Origin: Candidatus Buchananbacteria bacterium
Lineage (GTDB): Bacteria; Patescibacteriota; Patescibacteriia; 2-01-FULL-39-33
DNA: 64,000 nt
Direction: 5' to 3'
Assembly (NCBI GenBank): GCA_041666945.1
Contig: JBAYFY010000001.1
Coordinates: 182,627 to 246,626 of the forward strand
Numbering within the stretch: position 1 is the stretch's first letter; each line of letters opens with the position of its first letter. Below the pieces are notes generated by a model. That model did not search any database, was not told where the DNA came from, and saw only the letters and a program-made list of their open reading frames with translations. Below are positions 8,390-59,486 of this stretch, piece by piece. Made by a program: the position numbers and the translations under genes.

Positions 8390-8423
8390 ATTAAGGTATT
8401 ATTTGACAATTTACAAGACCGCC

Positions 8424-9266
8424 ATGAATAAATTAATCGGTTTTATCGGCCAGGGCTGGATCGGCAAAAATTATGCCGACGATTTTGAAGTTAGGGGCTA
8501 TCAGGTAATCAGATATTCTTTGGAAGAACCGTATCTCGCCAACAAAGAAAAAATCAGCGAGTGTGATATCGTGTTCATTGCCGTGCCTACCCCGACTACC
8601 CGGACGGGGTTTGATGATTCCATTGTCAGAGGCGCCGTGAAGCTGGTCGGCCAAGGCAAGATCGCGGTAATCAAGTCCACGATTCTGCCCGGCACGACAG
8701 AGTCAATCCAAGCGGAAAATCCAAATATTTATTTGTTCCATTCGCCGGAATTTTTGTCTGTTTCCACCGCTTATGACGATTCGCGCCATCCGCAGAGGAA
8801 TATCGTCGGCCTGCCCATAGACAATGAAACATACAAAACCAAAGCCCGAGAGGTGATGTCGGTGTTGCCCCAGGCGGATTTTTCTCTTATTACTTCGGCC
8901 AAAGAAGCGGAATTATTCAAGTATTTGCGGAACTGCTTTTTTTATACCAAAGTCGTTTACATGAACATGCTTTATGATTTGGCCAAGAAGTTAGGTTGCC
9001 GGTGGGAAGTGCTAAGGGAAATCATGTCCAATGATCCCTGGATTGGCAACATGCATATTGATCCGGTGCATAAAAGCGGCCGGGGCGCCGGCGGAGAATG
9101 CTTTATCAAGGATTTAGCCGCACTTAGGCGTTTCTACAAACAGAATTTGAACGATGAAACGGCGGATTGGGTTTTTTCCGCTTTGGAGAAAAAGAATATT
9201 GAGTTGTTGTTAAAAAGCCAGAAAGATTTGGATTTGCTTAAAGGCGTTTATGGCGAGGATATTTAA
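8424..9266 (+). CDS. UDP-glucose/GDP-mannose dehydrogenase family protein, short form lacking the C-terminal UDP-binding domain
   Basis: N-terminal Rossmann motif IGFIGQGWIGKNYA. Catalytic-Cys motif GAGGECFIKD (UGDH GGxCxxKD). The ORF track starts at a TTG at 8403; the ATG at 8424 (MNKLIGF) is more plausible. Only about 280 aa, versus about 390-450 aa for typical UGDH. Confidence 0.6.
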   Translation: MNKLIGFIGQGWIGKNYADDFEVRGYQVIRYSLEEPYLANKEKISECDIVFIAVPTPTTRTGFDDSIVRGAVKLVGQGKIAVIKSTILPGTTESIQAENPNIYLFHSPEFLSVSTAYDDSRHPQRNIVGLPIDNETYKTKAREVMSVLPQADFSLITSAKEAELFKYLRNCFFYTKVVYMNMLYDLAKKLGCRWEVLREIMSNDPWIGNMHIDPVHKSGRGAGGECFIKDLAALRRFYKQNLNDETADWVFSALEKKNIELLLKSQKDLDLLKGVYGEDI

Positions 9267-19180: not shown

Positions 19181-19904
19181 AATAAAAATTTTTTTAAAGG
19201 ACCTTTTGGCCGGTTTGCTTGTTTTTTTGCCCGCTCGCCCTAATCGGGCGGTTATTCTGATGTACCATTCGTTGGGCGATAACGGCAAATTTTTTACCGT
19301 TAAGCCGGCTGATTTTTCTCTCCAGCTTGATTATTTAAAACGGCATAAATATAATGTGGTTTCTCTGGCTGTTTTGTCCGGTTATTTGACGGCGGGAAAA
19401 ATCCCGCCGCGAACGGTCGTAATTACCTTTGATGACGGTTACGCGGATAATTACTCAATCGCCTTCCCGGAGTTAAAAAAGCACGGTTTTCCCGCCACGA
19501 TTTTTTTGGCCACCGGCTTGCCGTTTTCCGGTTTGTCTTTGCTGACCAACGATCAAATTTCAGAGATGATTGCTTCCGCTTTGATTGATTTTGAACCTCA
19601 CACCGTCAGCCATGCCAAGCTGACTAAAATAGATTTGGCCGAGGCGCGACGGGAGATTGTTGAATCACGAATCTCCGTTGAACGTCTTTGCCAAAAATCA
19701 GCATCATATTTTGCCTACCCCTATGGTTGCTACAATCAGCAGATTATTGAACTGCTGAAAACCAACGGTTTTGAGCTGGCCCTAACCGTCGCTAAGGGCG
19801 TCGTTAGCCCTAAGAGCAACCGCTGGCTGCTCAAGCGTAACGCCATTGACTCCGCCGTCAGCCCGGTTCAATTTAAGGCCATCGTTAAATTCGGCAAAAG
19901 ATAA
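19170..19904 (+). CDS. polysaccharide deacetylase (CE4/NodB domain)
   Basis: VILMYHSL, VITFDDGYADN, HTVSHAKL. Confidence 0.8.
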   Translation: MTDKIKIFLKDLLAGLLVFLPARPNRAVILMYHSLGDNGKFFTVKPADFSLQLDYLKRHKYNVVSLAVLSGYLTAGKIPPRTVVITFDDGYADNYSIAFPELKKHGFPATIFLATGLPFSGLSLLTNDQISEMIASALIDFEPHTVSHAKLTKIDLAEARREIVESRISVERLCQKSASYFAYPYGCYNQQIIELLKTNGFELALTVAKGVVSPKSNRWLLKRNAIDSAVSPVQFKAIVKFGKR

Positions 19905-19908
19905 GATT

Positions 19909-20973
19909 ATGACTATTTGTTATTTTGGAATTTATGACCCCGGCTACAGCCGCAACAGGATTTTGCTGGCTGGCTTGCGTTTAAACAATATTAAAGTGAT
20001 TGAATGCCGGACTGCCGTTAAGGGACCGCTGAAATATTGGGACCTAATCGGTAAACACTGGTCAATCAGGAAAAAGTATGATATCATGATCGTTGGCTTC
20101 CCGGGGTTTCAGGCGATGATTTTGGCCCGATTCTTGACTTCTAAACCGATAATTTTTGACGCTTTTTATTCCTTTTTTGATTCCATGGTTGAAGACAGGA
20201 AAATCGTCAAAGCCCGGAGTTTCAGGGGCGGGTATTATTGGTTTTTGGATTGGCTGTCTTGCCGTTTGGCCGATAAGATTTTGTTAGATACCAACGCTCA
20301 TATTGATTATTTTGTAAAAAAATTAAAACTGGAACGAAGCAAATTTTTCCGAGTCCTGGTCGGTTGCGACGATAAAGTGATTTTCCCCGAGCCGCTTAGG
20401 AAAAAGGATTATTTTCTGGTTCATTTCCATGGCAGTTTCATTCCCTTGCAAGGCGTAGAGTATATTATTGAAGCGGCAAAAATTTTGGAAAATGAAAATA
20501 TCAAATTTAATATTATCGGCCGCGGCCAGACCTATGGAGAGATTATTGATTTGGCGCGCCGCCGGCAAATCCATAATGTTAATTTTTTAGAGCCGGTTCC
20601 CCTTGAAACCCTAAGGGATTATTTGGCACAAGCCGATCTCTGCCTGGGCGTATTCGGTTGCACCGATAAAGCCAAAAGAGTCATTCCCAATAAAGTTTAT
20701 GAAGGTTTGGCGGCGCGGCGGCCGGTTCTGACCGGTGATTCTCCGGCCGTCAGGGAGTTGCTTACGGACGGGCGGACTGCGGTTTTTTGCCGCTTGGCCG
20801 ATGCTCAAGATCTGGCCGCCAAGATTTTGGAGTTGAGAGAGGGGAGAATTGATTACGAAACGATTGCCGCCAACGGTTATGAAGTTTATCAGCGATTATG
20901 CCGGCCGGAGATCTTGGTCAAACAATTGTTAGATAGCCGTTTATTTGAAGGATTATTGAATCGAAAAAAATAA
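19909..20973 (+). CDS. GT-B fold glycosyltransferase (GT4-like, divergent)
   Basis: C-terminal Rossmann pattern NIIGRGQ ... NKVYEGLAARRPVLTGDSPAVRELL. Start taken at the ATG at 19909, directly after the upstream stop; the ORF track's 19846 start overlaps the upstream gene. Confidence 0.6.
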   Translation: MTICYFGIYDPGYSRNRILLAGLRLNNIKVIECRTAVKGPLKYWDLIGKHWSIRKKYDIMIVGFPGFQAMILARFLTSKPIIFDAFYSFFDSMVEDRKIVKARSFRGGYYWFLDWLSCRLADKILLDTNAHIDYFVKKLKLERSKFFRVLVGCDDKVIFPEPLRKKDYFLVHFHGSFIPLQGVEYIIEAAKILENENIKFNIIGRGQTYGEIIDLARRRQIHNVNFLEPVPLETLRDYLAQADLCLGVFGCTDKAKRVIPNKVYEGLAARRPVLTGDSPAVRELLTDGRTAVFCRLADAQDLAAKILELREGRIDYETIAANGYEVYQRLCRPEILVKQLLDSRLFEGLLNRKK

Positions 20974-20975: not shown

Positions 20976-23135
20976 ATGCTAAAAATCAATCAGGATAAGG
21001 ATTTAATTTTTATTTTGCCGCCCAAACGACTCAAAGAGCATCGTTATTCTTTGGGCTTGATGTATATCTCCGGCTATTTGCGGGATCATGGTTTTGACAA
21101 TTTGATTATTGACGGAAAATTCATTGCTACCCGGGGTTATCAATATGATAATCGCGAAAGGGCCAAGGAAGAAATCATCAAGGCGGTTGTGGAACTCAAG
21201 CCGCAAGTAATCGGTTTTACGGCTACGACTATGGAAATCGCCGAAGCCGTAGAAATGAATCGGAGAATCAAAGCGGAACTCGAAGTGTTCTCAATAATCG
21301 GCGGACCTCAAGCCACAGCCGATCCGGCCGGCGTGATTAATTCCGGTTTTGACGTGGCCGTTATCGGCGAAGGTGAAAAAACCGCGCTGGAATTGATGGA
21401 AGAGCTGCAAAAAGAACAACCGGATTTGCAAAGAGTGCGAGGCATTGCCTGGCCGGATCAAAACAATAATGTTGTCATTAATGAGCAGCGCGAGTACATG
21501 GATTTAACTGATTTGAGTTTGCCGGCTTATGATAAAGTGAACATGGCTTACTATACCAAGATCTGGGACGATATTATCAGGGGCATCCCCATGAAGGCGG
21601 TTATGGTCATGGCCTCTCGGGGCTGTCCGTATAGCTGCACCTTTTGCGCCTGCAACCAAGTTTTCGGGCGTCAGGTGCGTTACCGCGATTTGGAAAACAT
21701 CAAAAAAGAAATCAACCTTTTAAAAAATGAATATAACGTTGAGGGAATTTGGTTTGCTGACGACACTTTGACGACTAATTACGATCACGTGAGGAAAATC
21801 TGCCGGATTATGAAGGAGTCCGGTTTGTATTGGGGCGCGCAATCGCGGGTGGATTTGGTTAATGAGGAAATTATTAAGTTAATGGCTGAAAGCGGTTGTT
21901 TGCAGCTTGATTTTGGCGTGGAATCTGGCAGTCAGCGGGTTTTGGATGAAATCATCAATAAAAGAATAAAATTATCCGACGTGGAAAAGGCCTTTGAACT
22001 CTGCCAGAAATATGGCATTCGCCGAGAAGCGGGCTTTATGATCGGTTTGCCGAACGAAACCAAGGAAGAGATGCGACAAACTTTTGAATTCGCCAAAAAA
22101 ATCAAAGCCGATCATTACTCTTTCAGTATCTTTACCGCCCTGCCGGGAACGAAACTTTTCAATGATTTTTTTAAAGATCGCATCAGTGTCGCCGATTATT
22201 GCAATTTTTCTTTTTTTCAAAGCCAGGATAAATTCAATCGTTCCGGCGTCAGCGATTCCCAAGAATTAGAAAAATTATTCGAGGGTTGGCGCCAGGGCAT
22301 ATTTGAAGGCGTAAAAAAGAGAGGTTTGACCCATTTTTTAAGATTAGCGGCGATTTGGTTTAAACTGGGTAATAAAAAAGAACGCTGGGATTTTATATTC
22401 TTTAAAATTAAACGGGCTTTCAAATATTATTTTGGCAAGATTAGTAAAGGCATAGCGCGATCGTTTTTTTTCGAAGGTACGCGGCGCCCCGATTTTAAAA
22501 ATATTTCCAAGCATTTGGACTATAATCAGTATTGGCTGGAACGAGGATTCAAATTACGCAGCAAATTGATGGAAAGGGAAGTAATCTTTTTGGATTGGAT
22601 TAATCGGGGAGCGAAAGTTTTGGATTTGGGCTGCGGCAGTTCCCGTTTGCCTTACGAACTGAAAGAAAAGAAGGGTTGCCAAGTCAGCGGCCTGGATATT
22701 TCCAGTTTAGTGATTGATAATTTAAAGCGAGCCGGCATTGGCGGGGTAGTGGCTGATATTGAAAGCCCTGATTTTCACTTGGCCGATCAATATGATTACA
22801 TTGTTATTTCGGAAGTTTTGGAACACATCAAATATCCCGAAAATTTAATCGCTAAGATAAAGAATAGCGCCGACTATTTGGCGATTTCAATTCCCAATTC
22901 CGCTTTTTACCGTTATCGTTTCGGATTGATGTTCGGGGGTAGATTTTTTACCCAATGGATGACCCATCCGGCCGAACATCTGCGTTTTTGGAGCCATAAT
23001 GATTTTTTGCTTTGGCTGAACGATCTGGGTTTGGAAGTCGTTAAGTTTAAGTCGTCCAACGGTTTCCGTTTTAAGGACGTCTGGCCCAACATGTTCGGGC
23101 ATCAAATTTGCTATTTGGTAAAAACAAAAAAATGA
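20976..23135 (+). CDS. fusion: B12-binding radical SAM (N-terminal, about 470 aa) + class I SAM-dependent methyltransferase (C-terminal, about 200 aa)
   Basis: SLPAYD, SRGCPYSCTFC, GEGEKT; then VLDLGCGSSRLPYEL ... ISEVLEHIKYPENL. Confidence 0.8.
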   Translation: MLKINQDKDLIFILPPKRLKEHRYSLGLMYISGYLRDHGFDNLIIDGKFIATRGYQYDNRERAKEEIIKAVVELKPQVIGFTATTMEIAEAVEMNRRIKAELEVFSIIGGPQATADPAGVINSGFDVAVIGEGEKTALELMEELQKEQPDLQRVRGIAWPDQNNNVVINEQREYMDLTDLSLPAYDKVNMAYYTKIWDDIIRGIPMKAVMVMASRGCPYSCTFCACNQVFGRQVRYRDLENIKKEINLLKNEYNVEGIWFADDTLTTNYDHVRKICRIMKESGLYWGAQSRVDLVNEEIIKLMAESGCLQLDFGVESGSQRVLDEIINKRIKLSDVEKAFELCQKYGIRREAGFMIGLPNETKEEMRQTFEFAKKIKADHYSFSIFTALPGTKLFNDFFKDRISVADYCNFSFFQSQDKFNRSGVSDSQELEKLFEGWRQGIFEGVKKRGLTHFLRLAAIWFKLGNKKERWDFIFFKIKRAFKYYFGKISKGIARSFFFEGTRRPDFKNISKHLDYNQYWLERGFKLRSKLMEREVIFLDWINRGAKVLDLGCGSSRLPYELKEKKGCQVSGLDISSLVIDNLKRAGIGGVVADIESPDFHLADQYDYIVISEVLEHIKYPENLIAKIKNSADYLAISIPNSAFYRYRFGLMFGGRFFTQWMTHPAEHLRFWSHNDFLLWLNDLGLEVVKFKSSNGFRFKDVWPNMFGHQICYLVKTKK

Positions 23136-24250
23136 AAATAATTTATTTAGCCAACATCAGAATGCCGACCGAAAAAGCCCATGGTTGGCAAATCATGAAA
23201 ATGTGCGGGACCTTCTCCGCCTTGGGCCACCAAGTTGAATTAGTGGTCCCGCGGCGCCTTAATAATCTTAAGGCCGATCCTTTCGCGTACTATAATTTGC
23301 CGCCTAACTTCAAAATTACCAAATTGCCTTGTTTGGACCTGATTTTTCTGGATAAAATCATCGGCAATCTGGCATTTTGGCTGGCCACCGCGACTTTTTT
23401 GCTGGCCAGCAGATGCTACGTGTTTTTTAGGGAATATGATATTATATATACGCGCGAAGAACAATTCGGCTTATTTTTTAAATCGGCTTTTTTAGAACTC
23501 CACTCTTTACCCGCCGCCAGCAAATCGTATCATCGCCTTTTTTGGCGGCGTTTTAAGCGAATTATCGTTCTGACTGATTTCATTAAAACCGCTTTAATAA
23601 ATAACGGAATTGCCGCCTCTGAAATATTGATTGCTCCCGATGGCGTTGATTTGGCCGATTTTGATTTGGCTCTTTCAGCGCCGGCCGCCAGAAACAAAGT
23701 TAATCTGCCTTTAGATAAAAAACTGATTGTTTATACCGGCCATCTTTACGGCTGGAAGGGGGCTCAAGTTTTGGCTGAAGCCGCTAAATATTTGCCCGCC
23801 CAAGCCCTGGTCGTCTTTATCGGCGGCACCGAGGAAGATGTCAGGACGTTTCAAAAGAAAAACGAGGGCAACGCCAATATTTTAATTCTGGGTCATCAAC
23901 CTCATCAACAGATTCCGTTTTATTTGAAAGCCGCCGACGTTCTGGTTTTGCCGAATTCCGGAAAAGAAAAAATTTCTCAGTTTTATACCTCACCGCTTAA
24001 ACTTTTTGAATATTTAGCCAGCGGCGCGCCCCTGGTCGCTTCTAATTTGCCGTCGCTTCGGGAAATTTTAAATGAGCAGAACGCCGTTTTGGTTGAACCG
24101 GATAATCCTCGCCTGTTAGCGGAGGGGATCAGTAAGGTTTTAACACAGCGGCAATTGGCCGAGGCCATTTCCCGCCAGGCCCACAATGACGCCCAAAAGT
24201 ACAGCTGGGAAAAGAGAACTGAAAAGATTATTTCTTTCTTTAATTCATAA
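23132..24250 (+). CDS. glycosyltransferase family 4
   Basis: ATGA start/stop overlap with the upstream gene. GT-B C-terminal domain TGHLYGWKG ... LFEYLASGAPLVASNLPSLREIL. Confidence 0.75.
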   Translation: MKIIYLANIRMPTEKAHGWQIMKMCGTFSALGHQVELVVPRRLNNLKADPFAYYNLPPNFKITKLPCLDLIFLDKIIGNLAFWLATATFLLASRCYVFFREYDIIYTREEQFGLFFKSAFLELHSLPAASKSYHRLFWRRFKRIIVLTDFIKTALINNGIAASEILIAPDGVDLADFDLALSAPAARNKVNLPLDKKLIVYTGHLYGWKGAQVLAEAAKYLPAQALVVFIGGTEEDVRTFQKKNEGNANILILGHQPHQQIPFYLKAADVLVLPNSGKEKISQFYTSPLKLFEYLASGAPLVASNLPSLREILNEQNAVLVEPDNPRLLAEGISKVLTQRQLAEAISRQAHNDAQKYSWEKRTEKIISFFNS

Positions 24251-25647: not shown

Positions 25648-27111
25648 ATGAAAATAATTTTAGTCCAACCCCCGCTTACTTTGGAAGAGAGGTATGGAAT
25701 AAAAAGCAAAAGCGGAGGAGAGTCCATTCCCTTGGGGTTGGTATATTTAGCCGCCGCCGCCAGAGCGGCCGGGCATCAAGTGGATATTATTGATGCGGAG
25801 ATTTTAAATTTGAATACGGCCTCGACGGTAGAAAAGATTTTGGCGGCTGATCCCGCCGTTGTCGGTTTTACGGCAGTCACCATTTCAATAGACAACGCGG
25901 CGGCAGTCGCTCGGGAAATAAAAAAAATCAAACCGGAAATAATCACGTTAATCGGCGGCCATCATTTAAGCACGGCGCCGGAGGAGACCCTGAAACTTTA
26001 TCCTCAATTCGATTTGGGAATCATCGGCGAAGGCGAGAAAACTTTGGTGGAGCTGTTAGCGGCATTGGCCCGGGGCGCTTGGGATAAAAATCAGCTAAGG
26101 GAGATTAACGGTTTGATTTTTAAATCCGATGATTCCGATGAATTTATCATTACGGCTCCGCGAGACAGAATTATTGATTTGGACACCTTGCCGCAGCCGG
26201 CTTTTGACCTGTTGCCGGATTTAATCAAATACTCTCCGCCGGTTCACACGGTTAAAAAATTTCCCGCCTCCACCTTAGTCACCTCGCGAGGTTGTCCCGG
26301 CCAATGCACTTTCTGCACCAGAAGCGTTTACGGCAATATCCTGTCATCCCATTCGGCGGAATATATGATGGAATTGGTTTTATTGCTTTATCATAAATAC
26401 GGCATCAGAGAGATCCAATTTCGCGACGACAATTTTACGGTTTTCAAACCGCGCCTTTACAAATTCTGCGAACTGTTGAAAAAGGAAAAATTGGATTTGG
26501 TTTGGACGGCCCTGGCTCGCGTTGATATGGTTGAACCGGAGATGTTTAAAGCGATGAAAGCGGCCGGCTGTTGGCAGGTTTGGTATGGCGTGGAGTCGGG
26601 CAATGAAAATATTTTGAAATTAATCAAAAAAAACACTACCAAGGAACAGATTAGAAACGCCATTAACTGGACGAAGAAAGCGGGAATCGACGTGGGAGCG
26701 TTTTTTATCATGGGTCATCCCGGAGAAACCAAAGAAACGCTGCAGGAAACCATTGATTTTGCCTTAACTTTAAAAATAGACGAATTTCATTGCACCCTCA
26801 TGACGCCCTTGCCCGGTTCGGAGATCAGCGGCAATTACTCCCGCTACGGGACATTTGAAAAAAATTGGAAAAAAATGAATGAATGGGAGCCGGTTTTCGT
26901 GCCCTTCGGCTTAACGAAAGAGGAACTGATAAAATACAACAGATTATTTTTCCGTAAATTTTATTTCCGCCCCCGGATCGTTCTAAATTATATGAAACGC
27001 TTGAGAAGTCCCAAGCATGTTAAAATTTATTTTTTGGGTTTTTTGGCGCTTTGTGAATGGATTATTAGCGGTAAAAAGCGGCAAGAACAGAAAATCGTAT
27101 GTCAACAATAA
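25648..27111 (+). CDS. B12-binding domain radical SAM protein (class B)
   Basis: LPQPAFDLLP; SRGCPGQCTFC; GGHHLS, GEGEKT. Confidence 0.85.
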   Translation: MKIILVQPPLTLEERYGIKSKSGGESIPLGLVYLAAAARAAGHQVDIIDAEILNLNTASTVEKILAADPAVVGFTAVTISIDNAAAVAREIKKIKPEIITLIGGHHLSTAPEETLKLYPQFDLGIIGEGEKTLVELLAALARGAWDKNQLREINGLIFKSDDSDEFIITAPRDRIIDLDTLPQPAFDLLPDLIKYSPPVHTVKKFPASTLVTSRGCPGQCTFCTRSVYGNILSSHSAEYMMELVLLLYHKYGIREIQFRDDNFTVFKPRLYKFCELLKKEKLDLVWTALARVDMVEPEMFKAMKAAGCWQVWYGVESGNENILKLIKKNTTKEQIRNAINWTKKAGIDVGAFFIMGHPGETKETLQETIDFALTLKIDEFHCTLMTPLPGSEISGNYSRYGTFEKNWKKMNEWEPVFVPFGLTKEELIKYNRLFFRKFYFRPRIVLNYMKRLRSPKHVKIYFLGFLALCEWIISGKKRQEQKIVCQQ

Positions 27112-29663
27112 AAAGCATTTTTTCCCGGTACCGATCATGGCTGATTATTGCCGCCGCTTTTTTGGCGGTGCGAATTTTGGTTTTTATCACTTTTTGGCAG
27201 GCCAGCGTAAGTCGGGGCGGTTGGCAGAATTTTTATAACCAAGCCCAGCCGGCGGTCTCCGTGTTGCTGGGTATTTTCCATGATTACTGCGATTGGCATC
27301 CGCCGCTTTATTATATGGCAACTTCCGTTTTATTGCATTGGCTGGGAGGGGAGTGGATGATTTATCTGGCGCAGGTGGCCTTAGCTTTCGTGACTTTATT
27401 CATCGGTTATAAACTGATCCGCTTGTTTTTTAGCGAAAGGATTTCTTTGTTGGTCACTTTTTTAGTCGCCATTGAACCTTATTGGGCTTGGCACAATTTT
27501 TTATTAGTCAGTGAAAATCTCGCCATCCCGCTGTTTTTGGGCGGCGTTTATTATTTTTTGAAATTTTTTCTATTTCCGGAAAATAAGCAATTAATGATTA
27601 GCGGGTTATTGCTGGGCTTGTCTACTTTGGTCAGGCAAAACACCTCGCCTTTGATGGCGATTCTGCCGGTTTTTCTCATCTTGGCCTATGTTTTTCGAAA
27701 AATATTAGCTTTAAAGGAATTGGAGCGGATTAATTGGCGCAAAATAGTTTTAGGCGCCGCCGCTTTTATTTTGGTTTTTGCCGCCGTTATCTCGCCTATT
27801 TTAATCAAGAATAAGATTGTTTATCAACGCTTGACCCTGGTTAATTTATTGGCGACGAATATTTATTTTTATAATCTGCCGGCGTTGATTTCTTATCAGA
27901 AACAAATTCCCTATGCTGATGCCTACAATCTTATCGTTAAGCAAGCTGATGACGCTTTGGGAGCGAATATTGGCAATCAAGGCGACTGCCTGTCGGTTAG
28001 TTTGCCTGAATTCAACCGTGAATTGGATTATTACAGCCAAACGGCCAAAACCTACATCTTAGGTAATTTTGCCGATTACCTCAAAGTGCATTTGATCAGA
28101 ACAGTGCCTTTCTTTTTCCAGCCCGGCTATTTTGAAATGTGGTCGGCTTACACCGGGGAATTTTCCAAACCGGATATTACCGGTTTCATTTTAAACGGCA
28201 ATTGGCAGGGGATTTTTGATTTTCTCAAGCAGATTAATCTTAAATTATTGACGTACTTTTCCGGCATCGCCCTGTGGGGCATCTGTTCCGTCGCCTTGCT
28301 TGCGGCCTTGGTTTACTCGTGTTTTAAAGATCGGGACAAACTGCTGTTTTTCGTTTTTTCGGCCATGATTATCCTTTATACCGCTTTGATGGTGTCGCCT
28401 TTTGTTTTGGCGCGTTATCGTTTGCCGGTTTATATTTTTTTCTTCTCTGCTTTAGCTTATTGCTGCGGCCTGCTTTTGGTCTTTTTGAAAAAGAATAAAC
28501 ATCAGGTGAAAAAAATTATTAAAGCTGTACCGATAATTTCTCCCTTAGCGAAATTATTTTATGATTGGCGCCGCGATAAACTGGCCGACGGCAAGATTAA
28601 AAAATTTATTGAATTGTCGGAACTGCCTTTTAAAACCGTCGCTCCGCCGATTTATGAAATCGGTTATGAGCCGACAATCAAATGCAATTTGCGTTGCAAG
28701 ATGTGCTATCAGGGCGAGAACAGGAATTTGCGCCAGCAGGAACTGTCAACCGAACAAATCCTGGAGGTTTTTAAAAAGATATCCGGTAAAACCAAAGAAA
28801 TAAAACTGGTCGGCGGCGAACCTTTCGCGCGACAGGATATTTTGGAACTGATTGCTTTTTGGGATTCTTTAGGCAAGAGAGTAATCCTCCAGACCAATTG
28901 CACGCTTATTAATGAGGATAATATTGATCGCTTGGCCGAATATAAACATTTGACCGATATTTTAACCTCATTAGACGGTCCCAAGGAATTGCATGATGCC
29001 ATTAGGGGCGTGCCAGGGACCTTTGACAGATTGGAGCGCGCTCTGGGGCTTTTACGGGTCAAGATGCCCCAGGTTCCGATTACTATTTTTGCCACCTTGC
29101 TGATTAATGACAACGTTGATAATTTTTTTGAATTAATCGATACGACCAAAAAATTAGGCATTACCACAATCAATGTTTTGTTTGAGCAGGTTTATTCAGC
29201 GGAAGAGGTCGCTCAAACCAAAAATATTTTTAATCAAGAATTCGGCTGGGAGGACGGCCGCGATTATCGTCTGAATACGCAGGTTCGGAATCCGATTTTC
29301 CCCTCCGATCTTGATGCCGGCGAATTGAAGAAAAAATTAGCTAAAATCAGATCGTATGGCCTTAAAAACGGTTGTTTCGTTAATTTTTCTCCGTTTAATT
29401 ACTACCACAATCTGCCGCAATATCTGGGTCGCCAGCCCGCCAGGCCCTTCTGTTTGAAACTGCTGCAGCCGGAATTGCGCATTAATCAGCGCGGCGAGGT
29501 TGTCTGGTGCGATATTATTGAGAAATCATTTGGCAATCTGTTGGATAAAACCCCGGATGAGATTTGGCTGTCTGATGATTATCAGAAATTCCGCCAGTAT
29601 TTGTTCAAGCATTCATTGTCCGTTTGTTCCAGATGTTGCAAGGCGGTTTATATTAATAATTAA
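27099..29663 (+). CDS. fusion: N-terminal GT-C-like (PMT/ArnT-like) polytopic membrane glycosyltransferase domain + C-terminal radical SAM domain with Cys-rich SPASM/twitch-like tail
   Basis: About 11 TMs in residues 1 to about 470, with an acidic first loop HDYCDWHPPLYY. Then YEPTIKCNLRCKMCYQ, GGEPF, and a C-terminal CxxC/CC cluster. Confidence 0.65.
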   Translation: MSTIKSIFSRYRSWLIIAAAFLAVRILVFITFWQASVSRGGWQNFYNQAQPAVSVLLGIFHDYCDWHPPLYYMATSVLLHWLGGEWMIYLAQVALAFVTLFIGYKLIRLFFSERISLLVTFLVAIEPYWAWHNFLLVSENLAIPLFLGGVYYFLKFFLFPENKQLMISGLLLGLSTLVRQNTSPLMAILPVFLILAYVFRKILALKELERINWRKIVLGAAAFILVFAAVISPILIKNKIVYQRLTLVNLLATNIYFYNLPALISYQKQIPYADAYNLIVKQADDALGANIGNQGDCLSVSLPEFNRELDYYSQTAKTYILGNFADYLKVHLIRTVPFFFQPGYFEMWSAYTGEFSKPDITGFILNGNWQGIFDFLKQINLKLLTYFSGIALWGICSVALLAALVYSCFKDRDKLLFFVFSAMIILYTALMVSPFVLARYRLPVYIFFFSALAYCCGLLLVFLKKNKHQVKKIIKAVPIISPLAKLFYDWRRDKLADGKIKKFIELSELPFKTVAPPIYEIGYEPTIKCNLRCKMCYQGENRNLRQQELSTEQILEVFKKISGKTKEIKLVGGEPFARQDILELIAFWDSLGKRVILQTNCTLINEDNIDRLAEYKHLTDILTSLDGPKELHDAIRGVPGTFDRLERALGLLRVKMPQVPITIFATLLINDNVDNFFELIDTTKKLGITTINVLFEQVYSAEEVAQTKNIFNQEFGWEDGRDYRLNTQVRNPIFPSDLDAGELKKKLAKIRSYGLKNGCFVNFSPFNYYHNLPQYLGRQPARPFCLKLLQPELRINQRGEVVWCDIIEKSFGNLLDKTPDEIWLSDDYQKFRQYLFKHSLSVCSRCCKAVYINN

Positions 29664-29676
29664 TCTTAAAGGCAAA

Positions 29677-31026
29677 ATGAAAATATTCTTATTGGTTCCC
29701 AATTTCAATCGGGAAAAAAAATCCATTATGAACGTCAGAGCCAGACAGCCGTTATCAATGGCTATAATCGCCTCCGGCTTGAGGCAATCCGGCCATGACG
29801 TTAGTTTGCTGGATGCCAATGTTTTAAATTTTTCATTAGAGCAGATTGGGCAGGCGATTAAAAATTTTAATCCCGAAATCCTGATTGTCACTTCTACGCC
29901 GATTGATCGCTGGGAATGCCCTAATTCCCATATTGAAAATGTTTTTAAGATCATCAACCAGGCGACGGCTCAATATAAAGTTTTAATCGGCAGCCATGGC
30001 ACCACTATGCCCGAGTGGGTGTTTGATAATTGCCAAACGGATTTTATCATCAGGGGCGAGCCGGAATTAGCCGTAGAAAAATTGATTGCCGCCTTATCGG
30101 CTAAGCAGTCCGCCGCAGGCGTTGCCGGCTTATCCTATCGCCAAGACGGTAAAGTTATAAATAATCCCGGTGAAAGAATCCTTGATTTGGACGCCTTGCC
30201 GCTGCCGGCTTATGATTTGTTGCCCATGGATAAGTATTCCAGCAATGATTATGAAAGGCCGTTTTCCATTATGATGACTTCGCGCGGCTGTCCTTACAAT
30301 TGCGTTTTTTGTCTCAAAGAAATGATGCCCGGCCGTTATATTGTCAGAAGCGTTGATAAAGTGATTGAGGAAATTGAATATTTGATAAAAAATTTCCAAA
30401 TCAAATCGATTTTTTTTCAGGATTGGGAATTTTTCATTGATGGCGACAGAGTAAAGAAGATTTGTTCCGCCATTGTTTCCCGGGACTTAAAATTTTCTTG
30501 GGGCGCCAATGCCCGGGCGACTGATATCATTAAAAGCAGGGAAATCATGCCATTAGTCAAACAAGCCGGCTGTGTTAACGTGAACTTGGGCATGGAATCA
30601 GCCAGTGATCGGGTTTTGACTAAAATCAATAAAAAAATAACCGCCGCTGATTTGCAATTGGCGATTGATATTTTGAAAGAAAATAATATCGCCGGAGGAT
30701 ATTGCGTTTTATTAAACGCGCCCGGGGAGAATCGGCAAACCATTAAAGAAACCATTGACTTTATTGTTAAAAATGATTTGCAAGTCAAGCAATTTTTACC
30801 TGTCATTCCTTATCCCGGAACGGTTCTTTTTGAGCAAATAAAAAAGAAATTTCCCGGAAAAAACATAAATTGGAATAACATTGAAAAATACGCGGGCTTG
30901 ATTGATACTGGATCAAAGCCGTTTTGGAGTTTTTTGTTTTTAAGAAATTATAAGCAACGCCTTAAGTATGGCCGGGGATATTGGCTGAAACCGGTTTTTT
31001 GGCGGGAAGTTATTTTTAAAGATTGA
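29677..31026 (+). CDS. B12-binding domain radical SAM protein (class B)
   Basis: LPLPAYDLLPMDKY; SRGCPYNCVFC. Start taken at the ATG at 29677 (MKIFLLV); the upstream extension in the ORF track overlaps the preceding gene. Confidence 0.85.
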   Translation: MKIFLLVPNFNREKKSIMNVRARQPLSMAIIASGLRQSGHDVSLLDANVLNFSLEQIGQAIKNFNPEILIVTSTPIDRWECPNSHIENVFKIINQATAQYKVLIGSHGTTMPEWVFDNCQTDFIIRGEPELAVEKLIAALSAKQSAAGVAGLSYRQDGKVINNPGERILDLDALPLPAYDLLPMDKYSSNDYERPFSIMMTSRGCPYNCVFCLKEMMPGRYIVRSVDKVIEEIEYLIKNFQIKSIFFQDWEFFIDGDRVKKICSAIVSRDLKFSWGANARATDIIKSREIMPLVKQAGCVNVNLGMESASDRVLTKINKKITAADLQLAIDILKENNIAGGYCVLLNAPGENRQTIKETIDFIVKNDLQVKQFLPVIPYPGTVLFEQIKKKFPGKNINWNNIEKYAGLIDTGSKPFWSFLFLRNYKQRLKYGRGYWLKPVFWREVIFKD

Positions 31027-41287: not shown

Positions 41288-43117
41288 ATGTGGCAACAGT
41301 CAAATAATCGTTTTAACCGATTGATTATCTTAATTTTACTGCCCGTGGTTTTTTTTATGGCGGCCGCCTTTTGGTATTTCCCGGTTTTTTTCAAAGGCAG
41401 CACCGCTCAGCCCGCTGAAGCGGAAAATTTTATCTTGGCCAGGAATCTGGTCCGGACCGGGTTTTACGGCATGGAAGACAGCCGCAATATCGTTTTAGCG
41501 CCGTCCTTAGTCAGTCAGCACGCCCAGCCCAGCACCCAGGGAAATAAGTTCACTACTTGGTCTTATGCCGCCTTGTTCAAATACATCGGCCTGCCCGATT
41601 TTAATGTGTTGATAATTATTGCCGTGATTATCCAAGCGCTGGCTTTAGTTTTATTTGCCGCCGTTGTTTTTTATTTATTCGGCTGGGAAGCGGCTATAAT
41701 TTTTTCTTTGGTTTATATCCTATTGCCGTTTAATTCCCAGATGGTTCAGACAATCGGCACTTATGAATTTGCCATGTTATATTTCGCAATTTTTTCCGTT
41801 TTGTTTTTTCTGGGCCGAAAAACCAAGGGTAAATATATTTTTTTGCCTTTAGCCGGTATTTTTCTATCGCTATCTTGTTTGGCGCGGGAAGTGATGTTTT
41901 TATTCCCCCCCGTGTTTTTCTGTTGGCTTATTTTTCAACCCCAGCAACAGCCCGTTGCCGCTTCAAAGATTTTATCGTCCCTGCAGTCGGTTCGGTCATG
42001 GTTTAAAACAACCGCGACTAATCTTAAAAAAAATGTCACTAAAATTAATTTAATAAACGCCGGCCTGGTTTTTGTTCCTTTCTTCGTCATGCTGGCGGTT
42101 TTTTGGTTGCCGGCGATAGTCGGTCTTCGCGGCACCAATGATTATTTCAGGGTTTTTGTCGCTAATAAAACACAGACCGGTAATTGGTCGGAATTTAATT
42201 TTTACGGCCATCTTTTCCCCGATCCTTATACCTTTTATTTCGATCAAAAAACCGTACTGGATAAATTCAATTCAGACATTGCCAGCCGGGGAATATTGGA
42301 ACGCATTGATTTAATCAAGGTGGGAGCCAATATCGGCATCCGCCCCATTAACTTAATGGAGAGAATGATTGTGGGGTCGAATAATTTACTCGCCCATCTT
42401 TCCCGCTTTGTTGCTTTGGAGTATATCGGCGGATCGTTGTTTTTCATTTTAATGCTGTTGGGCATTAAAGAATTGAGCCGTCGCGATAAGAATTTAACCG
42501 TTCTTTTTGCCAGTTGGCTGGTGTTCTCCATCTTAATTTCCAGTTACGTTGTTTTGGCTTCGCGCGACCATTTAATGGACTGGGGTTGGGCGATTGCGCT
42601 TTTTATCAGTTTTGGTTTAACGGGTTTAGTAAAAATTATTAGCGATCGTTATGTCGCCAACAAATTCAGCCGATTAGCCGGCTGGTTAGCCATTTTCTTG
42701 CTTATTTACGGCCTGATCCAGGCGAATCATGTTTATTGGGGGCGAGGATATGATGATAACGTCAACTTAAAGATCGTCTATTTGGCAGAACAGGTTCGTT
42801 CGCGGACCGAAGCCATCAAGCCGGAGGAAACGGTAGTCGTGGGCAATAGGGCGTTGCACCCCCTGTTGAATTATTTGACGGGAGTGTCAGCGGTTTATTT
42901 TTCTCCCGAGACCGTCGGCCGTTTACTGCAAGAGCAGAAACTTCAGTCGGCATTTGAAGCTTATAACGTGAAATACGTGATTGGTTATGACAGTGAATTG
43001 GCGCAACAAATCTCTTCCAGCAGCCAAGCAATAAATATCGCTGATTGGCCCCGGGCCGGAGTAGTGGAAGCCAAAGCCAGCCCCGGGAAAATGTGGTTTC
43101 TTAATTTGATAAAATAA
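41288..43117 (+). CDS. large polytopic membrane protein of unknown function (possible GT-C-like transferase)
   Basis: About 12 TMs with loops in between. No soluble catalytic motifs recognised. Confidence 0.45.
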   Translation: MWQQSNNRFNRLIILILLPVVFFMAAAFWYFPVFFKGSTAQPAEAENFILARNLVRTGFYGMEDSRNIVLAPSLVSQHAQPSTQGNKFTTWSYAALFKYIGLPDFNVLIIIAVIIQALALVLFAAVVFYLFGWEAAIIFSLVYILLPFNSQMVQTIGTYEFAMLYFAIFSVLFFLGRKTKGKYIFLPLAGIFLSLSCLAREVMFLFPPVFFCWLIFQPQQQPVAASKILSSLQSVRSWFKTTATNLKKNVTKINLINAGLVFVPFFVMLAVFWLPAIVGLRGTNDYFRVFVANKTQTGNWSEFNFYGHLFPDPYTFYFDQKTVLDKFNSDIASRGILERIDLIKVGANIGIRPINLMERMIVGSNNLLAHLSRFVALEYIGGSLFFILMLLGIKELSRRDKNLTVLFASWLVFSILISSYVVLASRDHLMDWGWAIALFISFGLTGLVKIISDRYVANKFSRLAGWLAIFLLIYGLIQANHVYWGRGYDDNVNLKIVYLAEQVRSRTEAIKPEETVVVGNRALHPLLNYLTGVSAVYFSPETVGRLLQEQKLQSAFEAYNVKYVIGYDSELAQQISSSSQAINIADWPRAGVVEAKASPGKMWFLNLIK

Positions 43118-49487: not shown

Positions 49488-50414
49488 TCATTGGCGATTA
49501 TTAATCTCTCTTCTTAGGGCGGAAATCTGATCGGCAATCAAGCCGAAAAAGAAAATCAGTATTGAAGATAACGATATTAATACCGTGCTGGCGCTGATTC
49601 TGCCTTGATTAAGAATATCAAAGATCAATAAACTTCCGCCCAAGAGGAACAATAGCAAGCCAATGGGCAAAAATATTCTTAAGGGCGAGAAAAGCATGAT
49701 TAAACGCAGAATTAAAAATAAGTAAGTTATAAATTCCCTCGGTTTAACCATGCTTTGCCCGCTTTCTCTTTTGTTTATTTGAATGGGTATGAATTTAACA
49801 TTCAGGCCTTCACGCAAAAAGGCGAACAGGGTGGTGGTTGAGCAAGAAAAGCCATTAGGCAAAATATGAGTGAATCTTAAGAATTCTTTCTTCTTTATCA
49901 ACCTTAAACCGCAATTGAAATCGGCTATCTTTTTACCCAATAAATAAATGGCCAGCAAGTGGATTAATTTTTTACCCGGTTGGCGAATCCAGGGTCCTTG
50001 ATAGCCCATTCGTTCGCCCGATATCAAATCGAAATTTTCCGTATAAACCAGCATTCTTTTGATGTCTTCGGCCTGATGCTGGCCGTCAGCGTCAAAAAAC
50101 ACCAGCCAGTCATATTGAGCGTTCTTGGCCCCGGTTTTTAAACTGGCGCCATAGCCCTTATTGTAAGGATGATTAATCGTCTTTATCCTGTCATCTTGCT
50201 TTAATATTTCTCCGCTCTGATCCGTTGAACCGTCGTTAACGACAATAATTTCGTGGATTATTTGATTTCCAATCAATTCTTTGGTTAAGGAATCAATAAC
50301 CTTGGGCAGGGCTTCGCCGTCGTTAAAATTAGGAATGATTATTGATAATGCCGGAAATGTATTCATAATTATCGCTATTATTTGGTCTCTATTGGCCTCG
50401 GCCGCCCAGAACAA
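49488..50414 (-). CDS. GT2 polyprenyl-phosphate sugar synthase with C-terminal TM helices (GtrB/ArnC-like)
   Basis: SIIIPNFND, VVNDGSTDQS, DADGQHQ. Two C-terminal TMs. Confidence 0.85.
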   Translation of the reverse strand: MFWAAEANRDQIIAIIMNTFPALSIIIPNFNDGEALPKVIDSLTKELIGNQIIHEIIVVNDGSTDQSGEILKQDDRIKTINHPYNKGYGASLKTGAKNAQYDWLVFFDADGQHQAEDIKRMLVYTENFDLISGERMGYQGPWIRQPGKKLIHLLAIYLLGKKIADFNCGLRLIKKKEFLRFTHILPNGFSCSTTTLFAFLREGLNVKFIPIQINKRESGQSMVKPREFITYLFLILRLIMLFSPLRIFLPIGLLLFLLGGSLLIFDILNQGRISASTVLISLSSILIFFFGLIADQISALRREINNRQ

Positions 50415-51738
50415 CCCTGATGGTTTTTAGGGCAATGCTTAAATCAAGAAGCGGGGAACGATTTTTGACGTAATATAAGTCGTATTTGATTTTTTCCACC
50501 GTTTCTTCTTTAGAACCGCCGTAAGACGGGCCCATCAATTGCGCCCAGCCGGTTAATCCCGGTTTAACCAAGAGCCGCTCGCTGTAAAAGGGGATTTCTT
50601 GGGACAAGGATTGGATAAATTCCGGCCGCTCCGGCCTGGGACCGATTAATGACATTTCACCGCGCAGAACATTAAGCAATTGGGGAACCTCGTCCAATCG
50701 GGTTTTTCTCATTATCCGGCCGAAGCGGGTAACGCGGGCATCGTTTTTGGTCGCCCATTGAGCGCCATTTTTTTCCGCGTCCCGAACCATTGAGCGGAAT
50801 TTTTTGGCCAGAAATTCCTTGCCATTCTTGCCCACTCTGATTTGCCGAAAAATTATCGGGCCGGGGCTTTCCAATTTAATGATTAAAGCGATAAGAGGCA
50901 CAAGCGGCGCCGTCACCATCAAGCCGATGACGGCTAAAATGATATCTATTAGTCGCTTTAACAGCTCGTATGATTTTTTGGAATTTTCAGTTAAGTTCTC
51001 CAAAAACCAACCCAGCTCAATTGACTCTATCGGCACTTTCTGGGTGATGGTTTCATAAAAATCAGTCAGCCGGTGCACATCAATGCCCAGCGACAGGCAA
51101 TCAAATATTTTTTTGGCCGTGGCGGCGTCGGTATGCAAGCTATTGTCGGTGATAACAATGTCAATATTATTGTCCAGGCAATATTTTTTCAGATCTTCCG
51201 GCGCCCGTTCAAGCAATGTAGCCACGTAACCTAATTGCGGCCGGCGGACTATTTCTTTCATTAGATTTTCGGCTAAACTGTTTTGCCCGATGATTAAGAT
51301 ATAGTTAGCTATTTGCGGCGATTTGATTAAGCCGTAAAAAATTCTGCGCCAAGAAAAAATGAAAATAAAGGTAATGATCAAATCAATGATTAAAACTTTC
51401 TGCGGCTTGATGGCGGGGAAAAAAGGAGCCAGAAAATAAAAAGCGAACACCGCGATAATGCCGTTGATTATCGTGGCCCTGAATAAGACGGAAAACAGAG
51501 AGAAATTATTGTAACTGGTTTTTAGATCGTAAAAATCGCAGATGTAAAAAACCAACAGCCATAAGGCAAAAATAAAAGTCAGAGCCCGGTAATGAATCTG
51601 CCAAGAATTGGCATCAAAACCCGAGCCGTAGCGAATCCAAAGAGTCAGCCAAAGCGCCAGATAAAGGCAGGCAATATCGCCTAAAATTAGAAGTAATTTT
51701 TTGGTTTTTAGGATAAGGCCGGTCATAATTCCAGTCAA
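50389..51738 (-). CDS. polyprenyl-phosphate hexose-1-phosphate transferase (WbaP/sugar transferase family), priming enzyme
   Basis: Five N-terminal TMs. C-terminal bacterial sugar transferase domain PGPIIFRQIRVGKNGKEF...DEVPQLLNVLRGEMSLIGPRP. Confidence 0.85.
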   Translation of the reverse strand: MTGIMTGLILKTKKLLLILGDIACLYLALWLTLWIRYGSGFDANSWQIHYRALTFIFALWLLVFYICDFYDLKTSYNNFSLFSVLFRATIINGIIAVFAFYFLAPFFPAIKPQKVLIIDLIITFIFIFSWRRIFYGLIKSPQIANYILIIGQNSLAENLMKEIVRRPQLGYVATLLERAPEDLKKYCLDNNIDIVITDNSLHTDAATAKKIFDCLSLGIDVHRLTDFYETITQKVPIESIELGWFLENLTENSKKSYELLKRLIDIILAVIGLMVTAPLVPLIALIIKLESPGPIIFRQIRVGKNGKEFLAKKFRSMVRDAEKNGAQWATKNDARVTRFGRIMRKTRLDEVPQLLNVLRGEMSLIGPRPERPEFIQSLSQEIPFYSERLLVKPGLTGWAQLMGPSYGGSKEETVEKIKYDLYYVKNRSPLLDLSIALKTIRVVLGGRGQ

Positions 51739-57643: not shown

Positions 57644-57901
57644 AATACTCGATCGGAATGGCAATAAAAAGGATGCTCAAGCTGGGCATGACTTATAATT
57701 ATTACTATCTGTTTTGTCTATTAAATATAAAAATTATCTAAAATTATATAAAAAGTGATAATCGCTAATTATAAAAATAGATAAATCTATTGACAAAATA
57801 TTTAAGGTATGATATGACATTCACAGCACGTTACATTGGCAGGCCTTAGGCCGGGGACTATTTCTCTGGTAGGAGGTAAGCCGCAATATGGGAGAAAAAC
57901 C

Positions 57902-58600
57902 ATGAAAAAGAGTGAGTTCTTGAGCGCGTTGGGTGTTATGTGGGAAATTTGGAAGTCGCTGACGGATGAAATTTTGTCTTTAGGCGGCGACGATGAGGCG
58001 ATCCGCCTCATTAAGACGGATGACGGTCTGCGGCGGAGAATCGCCGAATTGGTGATGGCTAAAGCGCGTGGCGTCAAGGTTGCCGCCAAGCAAATTGGCG
58101 CTGATATGTCCGCCGGCAGCTACGATGTAATCGTTGACTTTAGCCAGAATCTTGAGCAGATGATCGCCGCCGGTCGCTATAATAGAGCGAGCTCGGACAT
58201 CAACGCCAATAATTTTTCGCTAAACGGAGCGGGTAAACGTAGAGTCAAAGTGGAATTGCTCCACTTTAATCAGAGTTTAGAAAATGGTGACCAAATCTTC
58301 GCCAAACTAAAAGAAGTCAATGATTGGCTGGCGCAACAAGGAGTGAAGTATCGCTACCGTTTTGCCCAAATAGAAGAGCTTCTGGCTCTGGGCGCGACTC
58401 AACCCGAGTTGCAACGGCAACTCCTGATTGCTGCTTTGGGTTCAATTTGGCACCATTATGGCAACCGCGACTTCGTTTGCCTTGGCGGGAATATTATAGA
58501 GCGCCACCTGCTCTTGGGTTCTCTTAAGGGTCGCTTCTCCGGTGACTACTGGCGGTTCGCTGTTGTCCGCGAGGTTTTTGATGACACCTTGAAACCTTGA
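57902..58600 (+). CDS. hypothetical protein, paralog A of a duplicated pair
   Basis: Shares a C-terminal module with 58631..59248 (SDINA..F..NG.GK, ELLALGA.QPELQRQ.LIAALGSIW, YWRFAVVR). The ORF track starts at 57836; MKKSEF at 57902 is more plausible. Confidence 0.45.
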   Translation: MKKSEFLSALGVMWEIWKSLTDEILSLGGDDEAIRLIKTDDGLRRRIAELVMAKARGVKVAAKQIGADMSAGSYDVIVDFSQNLEQMIAAGRYNRASSDINANNFSLNGAGKRRVKVELLHFNQSLENGDQIFAKLKEVNDWLAQQGVKYRYRFAQIEELLALGATQPELQRQLLIAALGSIWHHYGNRDFVCLGGNIIERHLLLGSLKGRFSGDYWRFAVVREVFDDTLKP

Positions 58601-58630
58601 ATCAGAAAAAATCGGGAAAAGGAGAATAGC

Positions 58631-59248: not shown

Positions 59249-59285
59249 GTAAGTAATTTTGATTAGACATTGACCTCTGAATTTT

Positions 59286-59318
59286 CCGCGCGATAACCCT
59301 TATCGCGCGGCTTTTATT
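59286..59318 (+). terminator. intrinsic terminator
   Basis: CCGCGCGATAA-ccc-TTATCGCGCGG, then CTTTTATTT. Confidence 0.65.
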
Positions 59319-59486
59319 TGATAAAGCTCATAAAAAATTGGCACGGAATTGGAAAGTATGTTATACTGTATATATTGCGGGGTTAATTGCCCGGCCAAAA
59401 TAGATTGGCAGGTATGATACTGGTGAAATTTCAATAAATTTACTTATTAAATCAATTTTTATAAATTTTTATTTAACAGGGTAAAT

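Follow-up and report, generated by a model that had tools for sequence, protein, structure and literature searches.

We analysed a 64,000-nt stretch of DNA (hereafter the window; positions 182,627 to 246,626 of contig JBAYFY010000001.1, assembly GCA_041666945.1) from Candidatus Buchananbacteria, a member of the Patescibacteria, or candidate phyla radiation (CPR), and confirmed that the open reading frame (ORF) at 20976..23135 encodes a genuine single polypeptide in which a B12-type radical S-adenosylmethionine (SAM) enzyme, or rSAM, is followed by a class I SAM-dependent methyltransferase. We propose, with a probability of roughly 0.6, that this protein acts as a bifunctional tailoring enzyme of a polyprenyl-phosphate-linked surface glycan of the Wzx/Wzy type. 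Positions below are those of the window, and features lie on its forward strand unless otherwise stated.

One polypeptide with two SAM-dependent units

The ORF runs from an ATG through 719 aa to its stop, with no internal stop codon, and its product corresponds to NCBI MFA6593804.1, annotated 'radical SAM protein' on a 300-kb contig of a Candidatus Buchananbacteria metagenome-assembled genome. Its translation includes the motifs SRGCPYSCTFC, VLDLGCGSSRLPYEL and ISEVLEHIKYP. Pfam hidden Markov models (HMMs) scored well above their cutoffs in all parts of the protein: a Rossmann-like B12-binding domain (PF02310, 62.8 bits against a cutoff of 32.1) occupies aa 25-140 (21048..21395), a radical SAM core (PF04055, 100.8 bits against 29.5) occupies aa 214-373 (21615..22094), and the C-terminal part matches both MetW (aa 537-714, 65.4 bits against 21) and Methyltransf_23 (aa 531-689, 61.4 bits against 27). 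A regular-expression search of the translation placed the [4Fe-4S] motif C217-P-Y-S-C221-T-F-C224 (CxxxCxxC) at 21624..21647, and its three cysteines are invariant in the alignment of the rSAM orthogroup (A1). The C-terminal unit, aa 496-719 (22461..23132), is identified by Pfam, fold and free-standing homologues as a MetW-like class I SAM methyltransferase. Its SAM-binding motif I, V548-LDLGCGSS-556 (22617..22643; alignments A2 and A3), satisfies the class I pattern (E/D)xGxGxG as L549-D-L-G-C-G554, with G554 invariant in both alignments (G58 in the numbering of A3). At the end of beta2, an acidic residue (D78 of A3, in 'GLDIS') is likewise invariant in A3, and the MetW-like family carries an invariant block of its own in that alignment, PNSAFYRYR...GRFFTQW..HP(S/A)EHLR(F/Y)WS.

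Structure prediction agreed with these assignments. An AlphaFold2 model built on a 111-sequence alignment had a mean predicted local distance difference test score (pLDDT) of 80 and a predicted template-modelling score (pTM) of 0.68, with confident placement of the B12 domain (pLDDT mostly >90), the rSAM core and the methyltransferase domain; at aa 520-650 and 680-719, pLDDT lies mostly at 85-98 and strands alternate with helices. The poorly modelled segments are aa 413-448, aa 496-505 at the joint (pLDDT <50) and aa 655-669. Foldseek searches of the PDB with the N-terminal ~420 residues recovered MgmA (9ccb, E = 4e-21) and AprD4 (6fd2, E = 7e-21), as well as TsrM, OxsB, CysS and TokK, and sequence comparison of the rSAM core with PDB entries placed AprD4 first (6fd2, E = 2.5e-26), with MgmA at E = 1.2e-25 (9ccb). 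The C-terminal ~210 residues matched 3cc8 best (E = 4e-10), followed by TehB-like proteins, RebM, AtmM, EvdMO1 and dozens of further class I methyltransferases, and Foldseek found no PDB chain spanning both halves. The protein belongs to the radical SAM superfamily, class B by structure, and its C-terminal half is a class I methyltransferase. A preliminary description, made from the letters of the window, had reported one ORF with B12-binding, radical SAM and methyltransferase domains and divided it into about 470 and 200 aa. That architecture stands, including the methyltransferase fold of the C-terminal domain, which passes both HMM and fold detection, and the sizes are corrected to ~495 aa for the rSAM unit, which includes an amphipathic tail, and ~224 aa for the methyltransferase.

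The sequence is metagenome-assembled and split versions of the gene are known at two loci (L009 and L098, described below), both of which could point to two adjacent genes joined artificially by a frameshift or in a chimeric contig. A search for the same fusion in relatives, which the preliminary description had suggested, instead recovered the same in-frame ORF from independent assemblies, without stop or frameshift. The architecture recurs in proteins P0002-P0005 (719-722 aa, 76-87% identity), and an in-frame ORF of 719-722 aa was recovered on six or more contigs, which differ in sample and assembler (JGI, ENA, Logan, NCBI), with the copies at L091, L092, L093, L095, L096, L097 and L099 spanning 76-89% identity overall. 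Their sources include a 958-kb contig of JGI 3300029288 (L091/L094), JGI 3300037067 (L092), Logan SRR22388058 (L093) and Ga0172379 (L095-L097). All fusion copies compared are in frame with one terminal stop, and their flanking synteny is identical. In codon comparisons, the ratio of nonsynonymous to synonymous substitution rates (dN/dS) between the window and L091 was 0.04 for the rSAM part and 0.07 for the methyltransferase part. Across the junction (aa 470-510), the proportion of synonymous differences between the window and the fusion copies (pS) was saturated at 0.66-0.83, while that of nonsynonymous differences (pN) was only 0.14-0.27, so the joint has long been translated and constrained. 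With the frame kept over this degree of divergence, a frameshift or chimeric join appears effectively excluded, and we consider an artefact barely credible.

Origin of the two halves and recurrence of the fusion

Both halves of the protein exist as free-standing families. Orthologs of the N-terminal part (P0006-P0050) are ~490 aa long and 43-66% identical to it, and those of the C-terminal 224 aa are ~225 aa long and 50-74% identical. An exhaustive search of 1.84 billion representatives with the C-terminal unit returned 8,461 matches at E 1e-3 or better, the best 150 of which are nearly all 200-260 aa long. Free rSAM orthologs stop at about aa 493 (A1), and free MetW-like proteins begin with MFYFxGTRKPDF, which aligns to aa 496-507 of the window protein (SFFFEGTRRPDF, 22461..22496; A3). 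Since the ends of the free proteins meet at the joint, the two units are joined cleanly end to end, with virtually no linker between them. The rSAM unit ends, up to this joint, in a cationic, aromatic-rich amphipathic helical tail (aa 448-497, 22317..22466), whose hydrophobic moments of 0.57-0.63 are the highest in the protein (mean 0.26, standard deviation 0.13) and whose net charge is +4 to +6. The AlphaFold2 model has long helices at aa 428-494, no transmembrane segment was predicted within the tail, and the free rSAM orthologs conserve it (A1 consensus); this helix pair may serve as an in-plane anchor at the membrane interface. MetW-like domains are also found elsewhere fused to PMT_2 (P0316), to a sulfotransferase (P0384), to a glycosyltransferase (GT; P0377) and in tandem class I methyltransferases (P0249, P0339). 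These other partners are all glycan-tailoring, which is consistent with a sugar-modifying role for the family.

A B12-rSAM has been fused to a class I methyltransferase in at least three independent events. In a neighbour-joining tree of the rSAM parts (no bootstrap), the five rSAM-MT(B) fusions, including that of the window, form one clade nested among unfused orthologs. The second fusion, P0013 (727 aa; L010 2022-4205, NCBI MFA4872192.1), groups within the clade beside it, in which the members sampled (P0006, P0012) have a gene for a different methyltransferase (type A) adjacent. It is built in the reverse order, with a type A methyltransferase at the N terminus followed by an rSAM ortholog 62% identical to that of the window, and its methyltransferase is 65% identical to the type A neighbour at L007 and only ~30% to the window methyltransferase. 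This type of fusion is represented by three independent 727-aa copies and is flanked by the same two GT types as the window gene. In the third, P0083 (694 aa; L174 5516-7600, L175 7001-9085), an rSAM 30% identical to the window's is combined with a C-terminal Methyltransf_11 domain; the gene comes directly after a GT4 gene, in a glycan locus that also holds RGP (GT75-like) and WecG genes. Two of the three fusions thus use the rSAM orthogroup of the window, with different methyltransferase families at opposite ends, and the third uses a distant rSAM; all three lie directly after a GT gene (GT4) in a glycan locus. A methyltransferase domain was found only in these fusions among the 182 B12-rSAM ORFs examined. 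A contig scan with the rSAM orthogroup alignment and a generic Cys-motif pattern supplied distant paralogs (≤38% identity; L011-L090) as a negative control, and among the matches listed none of the B12-rSAM ORFs had a methyltransferase domain. The 220-aa methyltransferase upstream of the rSAM at L001 and L007 was considered as an ortholog of the fused domain and rejected, as it is only 29% identical and belongs to the distinct type A family.

We attribute some functional coupling to the two activities on the strength of these three independent fusions, probably on the sugar installed by the flanking GTs. The fusion of the window is fixed in one clade, with purifying selection across the joint and cofactor motifs kept in both halves; because the cofactor-binding signatures are retained under strong purifying selection, both halves are probably catalytically active. 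The fusion of neighbouring tailoring genes within one shallow clade is evolutionarily commonplace, and the architecture is uncharacterised. Public databases already contain the fusion sequences, under no annotation other than 'radical SAM protein'. The statement of the preliminary description that no characterised example is known held against dedicated B12-rSAM reviews and full-text literature searches, in which the architecture is not described; the reviews mention no glycan role for such enzymes.

The gene neighbourhood shows how the two families are normally deployed. Immediately upstream of the fusion is a GT of the Glycos_transf_1 type (19846..20973, Pfam); no other neighbour of the rSAM orthogroup or of the MetW-like family is as conserved. 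Downstream lies a GT4 gene (23108..24250, Pfam), whose product is 67% identical to a GT at L009 and which recurs downstream in the gene maps as the second conserved member of the module. Its true start is likely the ATG at 23132, overlapping the stop of the fusion, and the start of its ortholog in L091 overlaps the fusion stop by 4 nt. Scanning metagenomes for the MetW-like family with the motifs TQWxxHP[SA]EH and PNSAFYRY yielded 80 loci, five of them fused, all in the clade of the window (83-89% identity), and 75 free (~94%). A homolog of the 19846-type GT was present in 21 of the 24 free loci that have at least 4 kb of sequence on both sides, and the methyltransferase directly follows this GT in 22 of 32 mapped loci. 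The gene maps share a conserved core of GT (18095-type), an optional deacetylase, GT (19846-type), the MetW-like methyltransferase, an optional gene and GT (23108-type). The B12-rSAM and the methyltransferase are optional accessories of this conserved GT module, the B12-rSAM being an optional insert. The arrangement varies accordingly: GT, MetW-like (P0154, 64% identical to the fused domain) and rSAM follow one another at L006, and the same order recurs at L124 with a gap of 7 nt; rSAM, DegT, methyltransferase and MetW-like (P0181) do so at L004/L120; and at L001, L007 and L008 two GTs precede a methyltransferase of type A (220-222 aa, with only 29% identity to the fused domain) and the rSAM.

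The two loci with split versions share this setting. At L009 (873-3166) and L098, the flanking GTs and the MetW gene are orthologous to those of the window (66-72% identity overall; GTs 66-67%, MetW 72%), and the slot of the rSAM is filled by a different paralog of 24% identity. The 250-aa MetW protein P0121 bears an N-terminal extension resembling the rSAM tail of the fusion, such that aa 475-718 of the window protein align to aa 10-249 of P0121 at 72% identity. These loci look like a secondary split, or a cassette-like replacement of the rSAM, in a formerly fused gene, which we consider the more likely history. The arrangement at L009 (rSAM, 17 nt, MetW) was also tried as an unfused precursor of the fusion and was ruled out by the 24%-identity paralog and by the remnant of the rSAM tail on the MetW protein.

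Proposed function and its alternatives

In the mechanism that we propose, the [4Fe-4S] cluster bound by C217, C221 and C224 would cleave SAM to a 5'-deoxyadenosyl radical, which would abstract a hydrogen atom from an unactivated carbon of a sugar residue. A methyl group would then most probably be delivered from methylcobalamin, in a C-methylation like that of GenK or Fom3; GenK/GenD1 and Fom3 are class B rSAM C-methylases, and we propose this reaction because C-methylation is the commonest chemistry of cobalamin-using rSAMs. In the C-terminal half, a second SAM would donate a methyl group by SN2 to the same glycan intermediate, at a hydroxyl or, with lower probability, at an amine. Going by the glycan context only, a sugar hydroxyl is the likeliest acceptor, giving an O-methyl sugar; an amino sugar freed of its N-acetyl group could conceivably be N-methylated instead, as a deacetylase is encoded two genes upstream, yet most loci of the MetW-like family have no deacetylase. 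At the joint, the cationic amphipathic tail would keep the enzyme attached to the cytoplasmic face of the membrane, the site of the lipid-linked intermediate, and this tail, together with the Wzx/Wzy context, suggests a polyprenyl-diphosphate-linked oligosaccharide at that face as the substrate. Through the fusion, the enzymes of two tailoring steps that belong to one GT step would be co-localised and kept at 1:1 stoichiometry, and the model requires neither the same atom nor a fixed order for the two.

Several observations weigh against this proposal. The GT and rSAM genes at L003 and L005 have no methyltransferase adjacent, showing that the two steps are separable, and only seven of the 24 well-flanked free MetW-like loci have a B12-rSAM within 4 kb, with none in the other 17. 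As either family occurs without the other, the two steps may modify different positions or residues. The short linker is modelled at low confidence, the closest solved relatives of the rSAM half include a dehydratase (AprD4) beside methylases, and, to our knowledge, CPR genomes usually lack cobalamin synthesis. No NCBIfam equivalog or subfamily threshold was reached by the rSAM half, those of the C-methyltransferase subfamilies HpnR, KedN5 and RiPP C-MT included (ApyD, the best, 185 bits against 750; BchE 165 against 481; HpnJ 147 against 578; PhpK 133 against 600; MgmA 132 against 360), so that its reaction type is assigned only tentatively. Substrate, product, cobalamin binding and both activities are inferred. 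The neighbourhood census also disposes of a Rosetta-stone reading in the strict sense, according to which every member of the methyltransferase family would have an rSAM partner.

These separable families lend some weight to the idea that the fusion is neutral, the stop between two operon neighbours having been lost and the two enzymes continuing to work independently, at different residues, positions or stages, with no coupling or channeling. The join is end to end and lacks an evolved linker, the rSAM orthogroup too occurs without a methyltransferase, the fusion is limited to one shallow clade (76-100% identity), and L009 and L098 look like a secondary split that left a remnant of the rSAM tail on the MetW gene. 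Three separate fusions that involve three methyltransferase lineages and both orders are nevertheless hard to explain without a selective benefit of co-localisation, and loci that have both families usually place them side by side or no more than two genes apart. We therefore find a purely neutral fusion doubtful and favour a bifunctional tailoring enzyme. The preliminary description had gone further and deduced sequential radical and polar modification of the same substrate. The three fusions uphold some coupling, but a shared substrate and a sequence of steps do not follow from them; both units are normally separate and autonomous, and here they are joined without an evolved linker. C-methylation plus O- or N-methylation of one substrate stays conjectural, and the rSAM half could equally perform a non-methylating reaction.

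The family relationships of the rSAM half bear on its chemistry. Its B12-binding domain precedes the rSAM core, and the folds of the cobalamin-bound enzymes TsrM, TokK, OxsB and CysS span both. The solved class B enzymes MgmA (9ccb), TsrM (6wte), TokK (7kdx), CysS (9n1b) and OxsB (5ul3) likewise combine an N-terminal B12 Rossmann domain with a partial TIM-barrel rSAM domain bearing CxxxCxxC (Foldseek E 1e-14 to 4e-21). The window protein is, however, only 17-24% identical to them and falls below every family-specific HMM threshold; it has a cationic amphipathic helix pair where TokK, CysS and OxsB have C-terminal domains; its complete fused class I methyltransferase is absent from solved or reviewed class B members; and it is encoded in a Wzx/Wzy glycan locus rather than in an antibiotic or RiPP (ribosomally synthesised and post-translationally modified peptide) cluster. 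The radical SAM enzyme AprD4 (6fd2), a 1,2-diol dehydratase from the apramycin pathway, resembles the window protein in core sequence and fold, and its own substrate is a carbohydrate; it differs in having no methyltransferase domain and in that the match is confined to aa 169-396. AprD4 is proof that a domain of the B12 type may lack the cofactor, and cobalamin ligation leaves no conserved motif that could be scored.

It is possible, then, that the rSAM half is no methylase and instead carries out an AprD4-like 1,2-diol dehydration or deoxygenation, an epimerisation, or a C-C or ring rearrangement, perhaps with a cobalamin-free B12 domain, so that the class I domain would be the sole methylator. 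The top PDB sequence match, also among the top fold matches, is AprD4, an enzyme with an aminoglycoside sugar as substrate; no methylase equivalog threshold is reached, and a ~1-Mb CPR genome is unlikely to make cobalamin. Reviews moreover describe the class B rSAMs as chemically diverse (PMC9204698, PMC12931638). The AprD4 model (NF033070, 108.5 bits against a cutoff of 500) nevertheless covers the rSAM core only (aa 169-396), whereas matches to the HMMs of ApyD, BchE, HpnJ, PhpK and MgmA begin at aa ~25 and take in the B12 domain (aa 25-398), a pattern that favours a cobalamin-using enzyme. The Pfam B12-binding score is about twice its cutoff, and in structure the true B12 methylase MgmA matches just as well. 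A non-methylating rSAM half is a serious alternative, which we consider less likely than not but slightly harder to set aside than a neutral fusion, and C-methylation is the reaction that we retain in the proposal.

For the methyltransferase half, the nearest solved structures belong to small MetW/Methyltransf_23-type enzymes, namely the uncharacterised BCE_1332 (3cc8) and the sugar O-methyltransferases RebM, AtmM and EvdMO1. The window domain shares their seven-strand Rossmann fold, GxGxG motif and acidic beta2 residue, and differs from them in its family-specific invariant block, in its fusion to an rSAM and in lying below the MetW equivalog threshold (TIGR02081 metW, 66 bits against 189.5). 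MetW is the best Pfam name for the domain, JGI calls its relatives 'methionine biosynthesis protein MetW', and the RiPP enzyme ApyD is the top NCBIfam match of the protein, all of which could suggest a true MetW, acting in methionine biosynthesis with a MetX partner, or an ApyD-like RiPP or other natural-product pathway. Both the metW and the ApyD scores lie far below their cutoffs, however, and no metX-like gene (homoserine acyltransferase) was found among the flanking genes, which instead encode GTs, deacetylases, Wzx, Wzy and a priming transferase; over the 24 free loci, the conserved partner of the family is a GT. We regard either role as very improbable beside that of a glycan-tailoring enzyme. 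Other pairings of an rSAM with a second group-transfer enzyme are known: C10P, a HemN-like rSAM, and the methyltransferase-like C10Q act in the cyclopropanation of CC-1065, and Elp3 is an rSAM fused to an acetyltransferase. The likeness is one of concept, and the homology established goes no further than the superfamily; these systems use non-B12 rSAM classes and have other partners and substrates.

The surrounding glycan locus and its implications

The fusion gene lies in a locus of ~47 kb (about 4.9 to 51.7 kb; 4894-51738), mostly on one strand. One cluster brings together a Wzy/ligase-like protein (Wzy_C, at 4894), a Wzx-type flippase (Polysacc_synt, at 35210), a Bac_transf priming phosphoglycosyl transferase on the reverse strand (50389-51738), all assigned by Pfam, and multiple GTs. 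This gene content identifies it as a surface-glycan locus of the Wzx/Wzy type and sets it apart from RiPP and antibiotic clusters. More than 15 GTs (GT4, GT2, GT9) are encoded, together with two polysaccharide deacetylases, FemAB/GNAT-like, LPG_synthase_TM and GtrA proteins and three further class I methyltransferases. The preliminary description had missed this context, which gives the fusion its likely meaning.

Ten B12-binding rSAM paralogs are distributed through the locus (at 11682, 15338, 20976, 25648, 29500, 31028, 33662, 37786, 44088 and, on the reverse strand, 45529). Seven that were compared share 21-35% mutual identity and all have CxxxCxxC, and the rSAM genes are often arranged as GT-rSAM pairs. 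Two further rSAM genes are not of the B12 type. One encodes another unusual fusion, the 854-aa PMT_2–rSAM–SPASM protein (27099-29663), the N-terminal PMT_2 part of which is a GT-C type, polyprenyl-phosphate-sugar-dependent membrane GT; this protein is conserved, at 854 aa in L091 and with 54% identity in L097. The other is a small rSAM gene at 40191. The arrangement of the whole locus is syntenic in the relative on the 958-kb contig (L091), and the literature searched contained no description of B12-rSAM-rich glycan loci in CPR bacteria. This 47-kb locus, with twelve rSAM genes (ten B12-type) interleaved with GTs, is a more remarkable feature than the fusion.

A few genes of the window call for separate comment. 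The ORF at 29500-31026 opens with TTG, encodes 508 aa and shares 164 nt with the preceding gene; its true start is probably downstream, as the L091 ortholog is called at 449 aa. The UDP-glucose/GDP-mannose dehydrogenase-like ORF at 8403-9266 is only 287 aa long, with partial matches to the N-terminal and central domains and no match to the C-terminal domain, and could represent a truncated or degenerate gene. No Pfam match at E ≤ 1e-4 was obtained for a 609-aa ORF inside the glycan locus (41288-43117) or for ORFs of 254, 205 and 311 aa downstream of it (57836-60422).

On a broader reading, which we hold tentatively and would not rate as likely, the fusion may be one visible piece of an undescribed glycan pathway, in which serial pairs of a GT and a B12-rSAM would build a polymer of the cell surface, its sugars being extensively C-methylated or otherwise radical-tailored at unactivated carbons and then O-methylated. 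The fused enzyme would couple radical and polar methylation on one lipid-linked sugar at the membrane face, and the pathway would make this ~1-Mb CPR symbiont rely heavily on scavenged cobalamin for its envelope. If the function that we propose for the fusion is right, the protein would be the first case for study of a cobalamin-type rSAM covalently joined to a conventional SAM methyltransferase, and among the very few B12-rSAMs assigned to polysaccharide tailoring rather than to the tailoring of antibiotics, RiPPs, lipids or cofactors. By guilt by fusion, the recurrent fusions provide a functional link between two large uncharacterised families of Patescibacteria and a specific GT module. The commitment of ~47 kb and twelve rSAM genes to one surface glycan in a ~1-Mb genome implies chemically unusual envelope sugars and a strong dependence on external B12 and anoxia, features that bear on the attachment of CPR bacteria to their hosts and their dependence on them.

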